Part shown: positions 5,699 to 6,347 of the stretch, piece after piece
How positions within the stretch are numbered: the stretch's first letter is position 1
Layout: each line of letters begins with the position of its first letter
Virus record (IMG/VR): IMGVR_UViG_3300027808_000015
Length of the DNA stretch: 17,609 nt
Source: a virus
Lineage: Duplodnaviria > Heunggongvirae > Uroviricota > Caudoviricetes
Direction: 5' to 3' (one strand)
The notes under the pieces: model-generated
What the model was told of the DNA's origin: nothing
The model's input: only the letters and a program-made list of their open reading frames with translations
The model's database searches: none
Position numbers and translations under genes: made by a program

Positions 5699-5727
5699 TT
5701 GACTTTATGTCAATTATGCTATATAAT
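5699..5727 (+). promoter_or_regulatory. sigma70-type promoter
   Basis: TTGACT-17 nt-TATAAT upstream of the omega-like gene. Confidence 0.8.
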
Positions 5728-5748
5728 AATGCTTTAAAAGGAAATGAT

Positions 5749-6003
5749 ATGAGACTAGCAAACGAAGTGAGAAAACCCCTAGACCTTAGCCGCGGCCCTT
5801 CCATTGACATGGAAAAATGTGTAGAGGCAGCAGGTGGTAATCGATTTAATTTGGTATTAATTGCTTCTGCTCGTACTAGAGAAATCCGCAGACAACATGC
5901 CCACAGCGATAAAAGAGAACATGTACATCCAATTGTTACTGCGCTGGGAGAAATTGAAGCGGGTACTATCGAACCTATTAAGTATTTAAATAAAGTAAAA
6001 TGA
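5749..6003 (+). CDS. rpoZ: RNA polymerase omega subunit homologue
   Basis: KCVEAAGGNRFNLVLIASARTREI...IVTALGEIEAG matches the RpoZ pattern (GNRFDLVLVAARRARQ...TVIALREIEEG); start moved to 5749 (AAGGA SD; 5707 lies inside the promoter). Confidence 0.8.
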   Translation: MRLANEVRKPLDLSRGPSIDMEKCVEAAGGNRFNLVLIASARTREIRRQHAHSDKREHVHPIVTALGEIEAGTIEPIKYLNKVK

Positions 6004-6008
6004 AAACT

Positions 6009-6084
6009 AGGACTTTAGCTCAGTTGGTAGAGCGTCTGCCTTACACGCAGAATGTCGTCAGTTCGAACCTGGCAAGTCCTACCA
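6009..6084 (+). tRNA. tRNA-Val(TAC)
   Basis: AGGACTT/AAGTCCT, TCTGC-CTTACAC-GCAGA, CCA. Confidence 0.96.
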
Positions 6085-6107
6085 CGATAATAACACAGGA
6101 AAAATGG

Positions 6108-6347
6108 ATGTCAGACTTAGAATCCTTTGAAAGTAATAACGAAGAAGAAGCAGAGATTGCGCAGATTCTTACACTACAAAGAAACTCGGCGGCAGTTGAT
6201 GCTATTAGAGCAAAGATTGGAACAGGGCCAAGTTTAAGCCATTGTGAAGAGTGCGGCGAAGAAATTCCCACAGCACGTCAGCAGGCAATTGCAGGTTGTA
6301 AAACTTGTATTGAGTGTCAGAGTTATGCTGAACGATGGAAGAAATAG
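6108..6347 (+). CDS. traR: TraR/DksA-family C4 zinc-finger RNAP-binding protein
   Basis: CEECGEEIPTARQQAIAGCKTCIECQ zinc finger; N-terminal EEAEIA resembles TraR DEADEA; start 6108 after AGGA SD. Confidence 0.85.
   Translation: MSDLESFESNNEEEAEIAQILTLQRNSAAVDAIRAKIGTGPSLSHCEECGEEIPTARQQAIAGCKTCIECQSYAERWKK

Follow-up and report, generated by a model that had tools for sequence, protein, structure and literature searches.

A viral homologue of the RNA polymerase omega subunit and an accessory TraR-family protein at the head of a co-directional unit of an uncultured freshwater jumbo phage

The window analysed here is a stretch of 17,609 nucleotides (nt) of viral DNA, the minus strand of the final 17.6 kb of the 50.5-kb IMG/VR virus record IMGVR_UViG_3300027808_000015, and all coordinates and strands given below are those of the window. 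From position 5699 on, it carries a near-consensus promoter followed by a gene for a homologue of the omega subunit of bacterial RNA polymerase (RNAP), a tRNA-Val(UAC) gene and a gene for a TraR-family protein. Comparison with related loci indicates that promoter, omega gene and tRNA-Val are a conserved module, and that TraR is an accessory, paired with omega in some lineages only, there being no obligate pair. The possession of its own omega copy and of a TraR-type factor suggests that the phage rebuilds the transcription enzyme of its host. We lean slightly towards the reading in which the stretch heads a unit of a jumbo phage that uses the host RNAP, with omega and TraR acting independently on that polymerase.

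An earlier note, made from the sequence of this DNA alone, had described a promoter, an rpoZ-like gene, a tRNA-Val and a TraR-like gene at 5699-6347. All four lie on the + strand where that note had placed them, and the two genes it had named pass profile searches: omega matches RNA_pol_Rpb6 (PF01192) with 37.5 bits (cut-off 26), and TraR matches zf-dskA_traR (PF01258) with 42.6 bits (cut-off 24.9). The note had also regarded them as a mini-operon ending at 6347, which has to be revised. Because the TraR stop codon overlaps the ATG of the next open reading frame, ORF305 (6335), and because no terminator-like site was found on the + strand between 5699 and 8652, the omega-TraR stretch is best read as the head of a longer co-directional unit, not as a two-gene mini-operon. 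The unit contains the following features:

5699..5727, + strand, sigma-70-type promoter: TTGACT (5699-5704), 17-nt spacer, TATAAT (5722-5727), A+T-rich discriminator
5738..5744, + strand, Shine-Dalgarno-like AAGGAAA a few nt 5' of the omega ATG, read from the sequence
5749..6003, + strand, viral RNA polymerase omega homologue, 84 amino acids (aa), with Pfam and TIGR matches over cut-off
6009..6084, + strand, tRNA-Val(UAC), 5 nt past the omega stop codon (ARAGORN; Rfam tRNA 69.8 bits)
6108..6347, + strand, TraR-family C4 zinc-finger protein, 79 aa (zf-dskA_traR, phrog_54, AF2/Foldseek)
6335..7252, + strand, ORF305, viral protein with no assigned function, overlapping the TraR end by 13 nt and probably on the same transcript
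7267..8151, + strand, ORF294, viral protein with no assigned function, 14 nt past ORF305
8192..8277, + strand, tRNA-Arg(UCG), probable end of the co-directional unit (ARAGORN)

The viral omega homologue and its promoter

Besides RNA_pol_Rpb6, the viral omega matches the rpoZ model TIGR00690 (27.3 bits, cut-off 23.6), and its sequence matches in the Protein Data Bank (PDB) were omega chains only, from Vibrio, E. coli, Pseudomonas, Xanthomonas and Caulobacter, with residues 19-75 of the viral protein aligned to residues 4-60 of the solved chains. A model built with AlphaFold2 (AF2) from 104 relatives has a predicted local distance difference test (pLDDT) value of 90.3 and places helices at residues 21-27, 32-49, 56-71 and 76-82. 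In a Foldseek search with this model, the top rows were almost all omega chains (probability up to 0.99, template modelling (TM) score 0.5-0.65); with a protein of this small size the E-values are weak (0.14 or worse), and it is the uniform identity of the top rows that was used. The viral protein thus resembles bacterial RpoZ of the proteobacterial type in passing the family models, in its predicted helical fold and in its predicted beta' surface, and its core, GNRF(D/N)LVL...A.RAR...ALxEI..G, aligns with the omegas of E. coli, Vibrio, Pseudomonas and Xanthomonas. Unlike RpoZ, it is a viral product, and its gene stands within a tRNA array and has a consensus promoter to itself. Its score against E. 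coli omega is only about 18 bits, and it has no counterpart of the long acidic tail at the C-terminus of that protein.

The most conspicuous difference from RpoZ is at the N-terminus, where 16 extra residues with a Ser-Arg signature replace the bacterial MARVT start. Residues 1-16 form an extension before the core helices and carry S14-R15. In the alignments to solved omegas, the equivalent of the bacterial Met1 is G16; therefore, the Ser-Arg motif is an extension past the bacterial N-terminus. The bacterial residues 2-5 of the MARVT start are not kept, the aligned viral residues being P17-S18-I19-D20. The majority signature of the family, S-R-(G)-x-x-(I/V)-D-x-E-K-C, lies N-terminal to the GGNRF(N/D)LVL core, and its positions are shared by most of 104 representatives (S14 in 77, R15 in 83, D20 in 86 and C24 in 90). 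A few members retain a bacterial-type MAR(V/Y)T start though they stand in phage-like contexts (P0229).

An exhaustive profile-free search with the omega sequence among 1.84 billion representatives (E <= 0.001) yielded 132 viral omega representatives at 50% identity, nearly all of 60-127 aa, from which the viral omega family is judged to be large; it is also widespread. The ratio of nonsynonymous to synonymous substitution rates (dN/dS) against relatives is 0.08-0.14, as expected of a protein that is under purifying selection. Many such proteins are already labelled omega in the automatic annotation of the Joint Genome Institute (JGI). Meanwhile, no PHROG family matched the viral omega, tblastn against 50,697 cultured-phage records remained without a match at E <= 0.01, no PF01192 match was found in phages PA5oct, Phosso, Vibrio 2.275.O, XbC2 and pEa_SNUABM_19, and a megablast search with the region matched tRNA pieces and nothing else. 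No paper on a phage-encoded omega or rpoZ was found in the literature. P0169 (569 aa), with six omega matches (E 1.8e-08), was set aside as unrelated or artefactual; it consists of six tandem repeats, and its sequence looks unrelated to phage omega.

The promoter at 5699-5727 matches 11 of 12 consensus positions. Of 34 distinct upstream regions from related loci, 27 have a TTGAC[AT]-17-TAnnnT element 17-31 nt upstream of the omega ATG, with diverging spacer sequences and an A+T-rich discriminator; it was not seen in the remaining loci, in most of which omega is directly 3' of a tRNA. Several further near-consensus sigma-70 promoters occur on the same strand of the window. Relatives carry GGAG or AGGA in the place of the Shine-Dalgarno-like site, and an AGGA site also precedes the TraR ATG at 6108. 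Gene callers start omega at ATG 5707 (a 98-aa frame); this start was rejected, ATG 5707 being inside the promoter, in favour of ATG 5749 behind the Shine-Dalgarno-like site. Among the 45 related loci collected, 37 have tRNA-Val(UAC) as the tRNA next downstream of omega.

The TraR-family protein and its linkage to omega

The TraR-family protein matches phrog_54 (5.9e-18) in addition to zf-dskA_traR, and stays below the cut-offs of NCBIfam TIGR02419 (54.7 vs 59.7) and of the F TraR equivalog PRK13715 (43.9 vs 108). It resembles TraR of the F plasmid and the phage homologues lambda Orf73, P2 Orf82 and VP882 Orf61: it is phage-borne, its residues 13-79 are 38-39% identical to F TraR, and its AF2 model (pLDDT 83) superimposes in Foldseek on RNAP-bound F TraR (6n57_M and 5w1s_M; TM 0.72/0.79, root-mean-square deviation 1.6 A). 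The TraR architecture of N-terminal helix, globular domain, and a helix at the C-terminus, without coiled coil, is present: a conserved, unstructured tail (residues 1-11) is followed by a helix (12-36) starting with EEEAEIAQ, a zinc finger and a C-terminal helix (68-78). The zinc finger is of the form CxxC-17-CxxC (C46, C49, C67 and C70), and its four cysteines are invariant in 81 sequences. In the adjacent-arrangement group, dN/dS of the viral TraR is 0.04-0.16, which again speaks for purifying selection.

The tip of the protein reads EEAEIA instead of DEADEA, as had been pointed out before, and alignment to F TraR agrees: E13-E14-A15-E16-I17-A18 corresponds to D3-E4-A5-D6-E7-A8, with the Ala retained. 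The 81 sequences make up an N-extended TraR subfamily with an invariant Q19 and with conservation of 90% or more at N11-E12-E13-E14-A15-E16. Because of this conservation, the EEAEIA tip is regarded as a near-invariant signature of the subfamily and not as decay. A neighbouring TraR sub-lineage has the tip EE[SA]D[MQ]A, and the TraRs of cultured phages align to the viral TraR from residue 17-18 on only.

The linkage of the two genes across relatives is loose, and the co-occurrence across phages that the earlier note had proposed as a check did not hold up. Of 44 informative related loci, 11 have TraR directly adjacent to omega and six more have it 0.5-3.4 kb downstream, so that it occurs within 4 kb in 17 of 44; in the other 27 it was not found within the flanks covered. 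Among three relatives of 94-98% completeness, zf-dskA_traR is present in one; the other two near-complete omega-bearing genomes (94% and 98%) contain no zf-dskA_traR match anywhere, nor does a relative of 83% completeness. Near a more distant omega lineage, no TraR was found within 5 kb; the contigs of the distant omegas P0146, P0137 and P0170 were too short for a judgement of their context. The omega tree has loci with the adjacent arrangement in two separate supported clades, so that at least two changes are required. Meanwhile, TraR homologues occur in 359 cultured-phage records, with hosts that are nearly all proteobacterial, and no omega match was found in that collection.

Action on the host polymerase and alternative explanations

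The source of the window is an uncultured freshwater jumbo phage of ~350 kb. The completeness of the record as estimated by CheckV is 14%, which implies a genome of about that size, and the contigs that carry omega relatives are 300-356 kb long and 83-98% complete (CheckV). The window sequence is present in runs of 19 studies, almost all of freshwater or lake water, and its 25 tRNA genes are without exception on the + strand (ARAGORN). The terminase of one relative is nearest, among cultured phages, to that of Pseudomonas phage PA5oct (52% identity); other near terminases are those of Sinorhizobium phage Phosso, Vibrio jumbo phage 2.275.O, Xanthomonas phage XbC2 and Erwinia phage pEa_SNUABM_19, and the hosts of all five are proteobacterial. 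PA5oct is blocked by rifampicin, has no polymerase of its own and depends on the host RNAP (PMC7318152). No Pfam match to beta (RNA_pol_Rpb2_6), beta' (RNA_pol_Rpb1_2) or Sigma70_r2 was found in four relatives of 83-98% completeness. The kinship with PA5oct, the lack of these matches and the sigma-70 promoters on the coding strand together suggest that the phage most probably uses the host RNAP. The terminase neighbours, the type of omega and the hosts of the cultured-phage TraRs, these three alone, point to a host that is probably a proteobacterium. RelA_SpoT gave no match; MazG matched in three of the four relatives, but is common in phages and uninformative here. Four metatranscriptome runs have contigs identical (100%) to the window over omega and TraR; neither start, strand nor level can be read from them and DNA may be present in such libraries, so they are no evidence of transcription of these two genes.

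The alarmone guanosine tetraphosphate (ppGpp) is bound by RNAP at site 1, which involves omega residues 2-5 and beta' residues R417, K615, I619, D622 and R362 (PMC7676912). When the viral omega was modelled with E. coli beta' residues 340-660 and 1135-1407, the complex scored 0.61, as compared with 0.00 for the best of three controls; among solved complexes, 58 of 80 come up to this mark, and among mismatched pairs 2 of 110. Contacts agreed between runs to at least 69%, and the partner pLDDT was at least 68. The modelled interface involves 362, 364, 414, 417-419, 438, 474-488, 613-615 and 618 of beta', and residues 13-17, 19-24 and the core helices of omega. In the model, the viral omega occupies the place of omega on E. 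coli beta', and its conserved N-terminus lies against R362, R417 and K615. Because these contacts coincide with published site-1 residues, the conserved L-S-R-G-P stretch is predicted to sit at the ppGpp pocket. The structural check with RNAP that the earlier note had proposed thus gave a fit of omega on beta' fragments; omega-RNAP complexes have been solved, so the pass may reflect structures already known to the predictor and speaks for likeness, not for binding.

According to the reading towards which we lean, the near-consensus sigma-70 promoter would drive omega, tRNA-Val(UAC), TraR in this sub-lineage, the two ORFs without assigned function and tRNA-Arg. The viral omega would bind the omega site of host beta' and serve as, or add to, the omega of the infected cell's polymerase. 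The Ser-Arg N-terminus would lie at the position from which residues 2-5 of bacterial omega contribute to holding ppGpp at site 1, and because this conserved extension is predicted at the ppGpp-holding position, the viral omega probably alters site-1 control; it may additionally help core assembly or formation of the sigma-70 holoenzyme. By analogy with F TraR and lambda Orf73, the N-terminal helix of the viral TraR would enter the secondary channel and reprogramme initiation without ppGpp, so that polymerase would be drawn away from host promoters of the rRNA type and towards those of the phage. Omega and TraR would then act on one enzyme, but independently. In the phage's own promoters the hexamers follow the consensus, the spacer is 17 nt long and the discriminator is rich in A+T; from promoter kinetics, promoters of this type are expected to resist such inhibition. 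Phage TraR homologues inhibit rrnB P1 and raise the yield of lambda (PMC9239242). In addition, omega and DksA are dissociable (PMC9304144), and the stringent response can restrict phages (PMC13483052). A more specific version, which we find possible but doubtful, is that viruses have an omega lineage of their own making, the conserved Ser-Arg extension of which fills or remodels the site-1 pocket so that the polymerase of infected, starved freshwater cells would ignore the alarmone, with some lineages adding a distinct N-extended ExxExA TraR in the secondary channel.

Several points weigh against this picture of two factors acting on the host polymerase. The E. coli beta' used in the model was fragmented and stands in for that of the true host, the complex job departs from the calibration of the tool, and the model cannot tell whether the extra N-terminal residues would block, keep or strengthen ppGpp binding. 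Site 1 yields just ~2-fold inhibition in E. coli (PMC9304144), which makes the advantage of altering it uncertain. A phage polymerase that has diverged very far could escape the Pfam searches for beta, beta' and sigma. The viral TraR differs from the F TraR group by its ExxExA tip (vs DxxDxA), by the conserved 11-12 extra residues before the tip and by its Si3 interface, where E46, R49 and K50 of F TraR are replaced by T55, Q58 and Q59; P43 is replaced by E52, and P45 is retained as P54. E46, R49 and K50 are required for activation by TraR (PMC6970531). Because the Si3-interface residues and P43 are replaced, the activity of the viral TraR may differ from that of F TraR.

The most serious competitor, which we hold rather doubtful, takes the viral omega as an aid to assembly or stoichiometry only: it would assist beta' folding, full omega loading and perhaps formation of the sigma-70 holoenzyme, in slow-growing hosts or after host shut-off, with no special effect on ppGpp control. 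A chaperone role of omega is established (PMC5811629), conservation within the protein is highest in the core helices touching beta', which also have the lowest-error contacts in the model, and some viral omegas in phage-like contexts retain the MAR(V/Y)T start. The conservation of S14 and R15 in the majority of the 104 representatives, however, argues for a function past the bacterial core, at the place of ppGpp. A coupled two-site kit, in which omega and TraR would be co-selected for both ppGpp sites and would uncouple the polymerase from the stringent response, seems unlikely. Both genes stand behind one promoter with tRNA-Val alone between them, in the window and in 11 related loci; the occurrence of this arrangement in two omega clades could reflect repeated selection for linkage, the omega N-terminus is placed at site-1 residues in the model, and TraR mimics DksA plus ppGpp at site 2 (PMC6970531, PMC9239242). 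Yet 27 of 44 informative loci have no TraR within 4 kb; it is also missing from two near-complete omega genomes and from the surroundings of more distant omegas, it is common in cultured phages, where no omega match was found, and it acts without ppGpp and therefore needs no site-1 partner. The earlier note had proposed remodelling of the host RNAP through both sites: this is supported in part, by both gene identities, the viral setting and the modelled fit to beta', but not as regards the coupling.

The note had also raised the possibility that the viral TraR is an antagonist, which would occupy the secondary channel and exclude DksA and Gre factors, while its ExxExA tip and N-terminal tail would not destabilise open complexes, so that stable-RNA-type promoters would stay active. 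The tip deviates from DxxDxA at both Asp positions, D3 and D6 are necessary in TraR and lambda Orf73, and homologues with imperfect motifs are less active (PMC9239242). Equivalent Asp-to-Glu changes have had opposite effects: E. coli DksA D74E is inactive, a result cited within PMC4010833, but R. sphaeroides DksA D80E is active (PMC4010833). The Gre factors carry DxxExA (PMC9239242), the related sub-lineage retains EE[SA]D[MQ]A, and conservation of the motif at 90% or more across 81 sequences argues that it is functional, not decayed. Sequence does not decide between a mimic and an antagonist, and on balance we judge an antagonist improbable. Far less probable still is that omega serves an unrecognised phage-encoded multisubunit polymerase and not the host enzyme. 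The beta/beta'-like polymerases of some jumbo phages are very divergent and can be missed by standard profiles (PMC7598289); however, the Pfam models of beta and beta' found nothing in the four large relatives, consensus sigma-70 promoters stand before the phage genes, the host polymerase is what the nearest cultured relative relies on, and the omega core aligns with proteobacterial omegas and fits E. coli beta' in the model.

Phages modify or inhibit the host RNAP via small proteins of their own, or bring a whole polymerase. T7 Gp2 and T4 AsiA are reportedly such modifiers. The T7 portal protein blocks RelA/SpoT (PMC13483052). As with these three, the phage studied here would alter host transcription or stringent signalling for its own benefit; unlike them, which are phage-specific binders, it supplies a homologue of a core subunit, and neither PHROGs, the cultured-phage collection nor the literature yielded another phage-supplied homologue of this kind. 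The viral omegas offer a natural set of variants for asking about the role of omega and ppGpp site 1, which is unclear even in E. coli, and they allow the replacement of a subunit to be tested as a strategy of takeover. For control through the secondary channel, the N-extended ExxExA TraR subfamily offers another variant open to testing.

Neighbouring features

ORF305 stands behind TraR in every locus with the adjacent omega-TraR arrangement and appears to be translationally coupled to TraR. Neither ORF305 nor ORF294 matched a Pfam or PHROG family; leads from the atlas are a weak Glyco_transf_9 match, on 10% of one cluster, for ORF305, and DUF6071/GDSL as the sole one for ORF294. Both ORFs are found nearly exclusively in viruses. 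The last tRNA before the omega promoter is the following:

5595..5686, + strand, tRNA-Ile(UAU), 92 nt, with a long variable arm (ARAGORN)

Its Rfam match is weak and tRNA-Sec-like (31.6 bits), and a tRNA-Ile(UAU) also precedes omega in several related loci. Two ORFs of the 2-oxoglutarate-Fe(II) (2OG-Fe(II)) oxygenase family lie among the tRNA genes, at 3423-4004 and 4756-5355 (PF13640; phrog_274, phrog_61).

After tRNA-Arg(UCG), the next promoter-like site is GTGACA-17-TATAAT at 8311-8339. It falls within an intergenic stretch of ~500 nt (8284-8835) in which the contig word depth, in four freshwater metatranscriptome runs, is 100-1000x that of the flanking ORFs, reaching ~30,000 as compared with 15-70. 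The high-depth stretch lies behind this site and upstream of a DUF2828/Ro60-like gene (8788-10269; phrog_850), and at E <= 0.1 it matched no Rfam family; a Y-RNA-like phage RNA that partners the Ro-like protein is one possibility. Outside the window, the remainder of the contig (G000:C1:8874-17803, L049) carries a run of at least seven radical-SAM paralogues, and radical-SAM genes flank omega in other viral lineages as well. Adjoining the Ro-like gene is a possible RNA-repair neighbourhood (10652-13705), with a metallophosphoesterase (11383-11988; phrog_547), an AAA_33/polynucleotide-kinase-like ORF (11997-12458) and an AAA ATPase (12596-13705).

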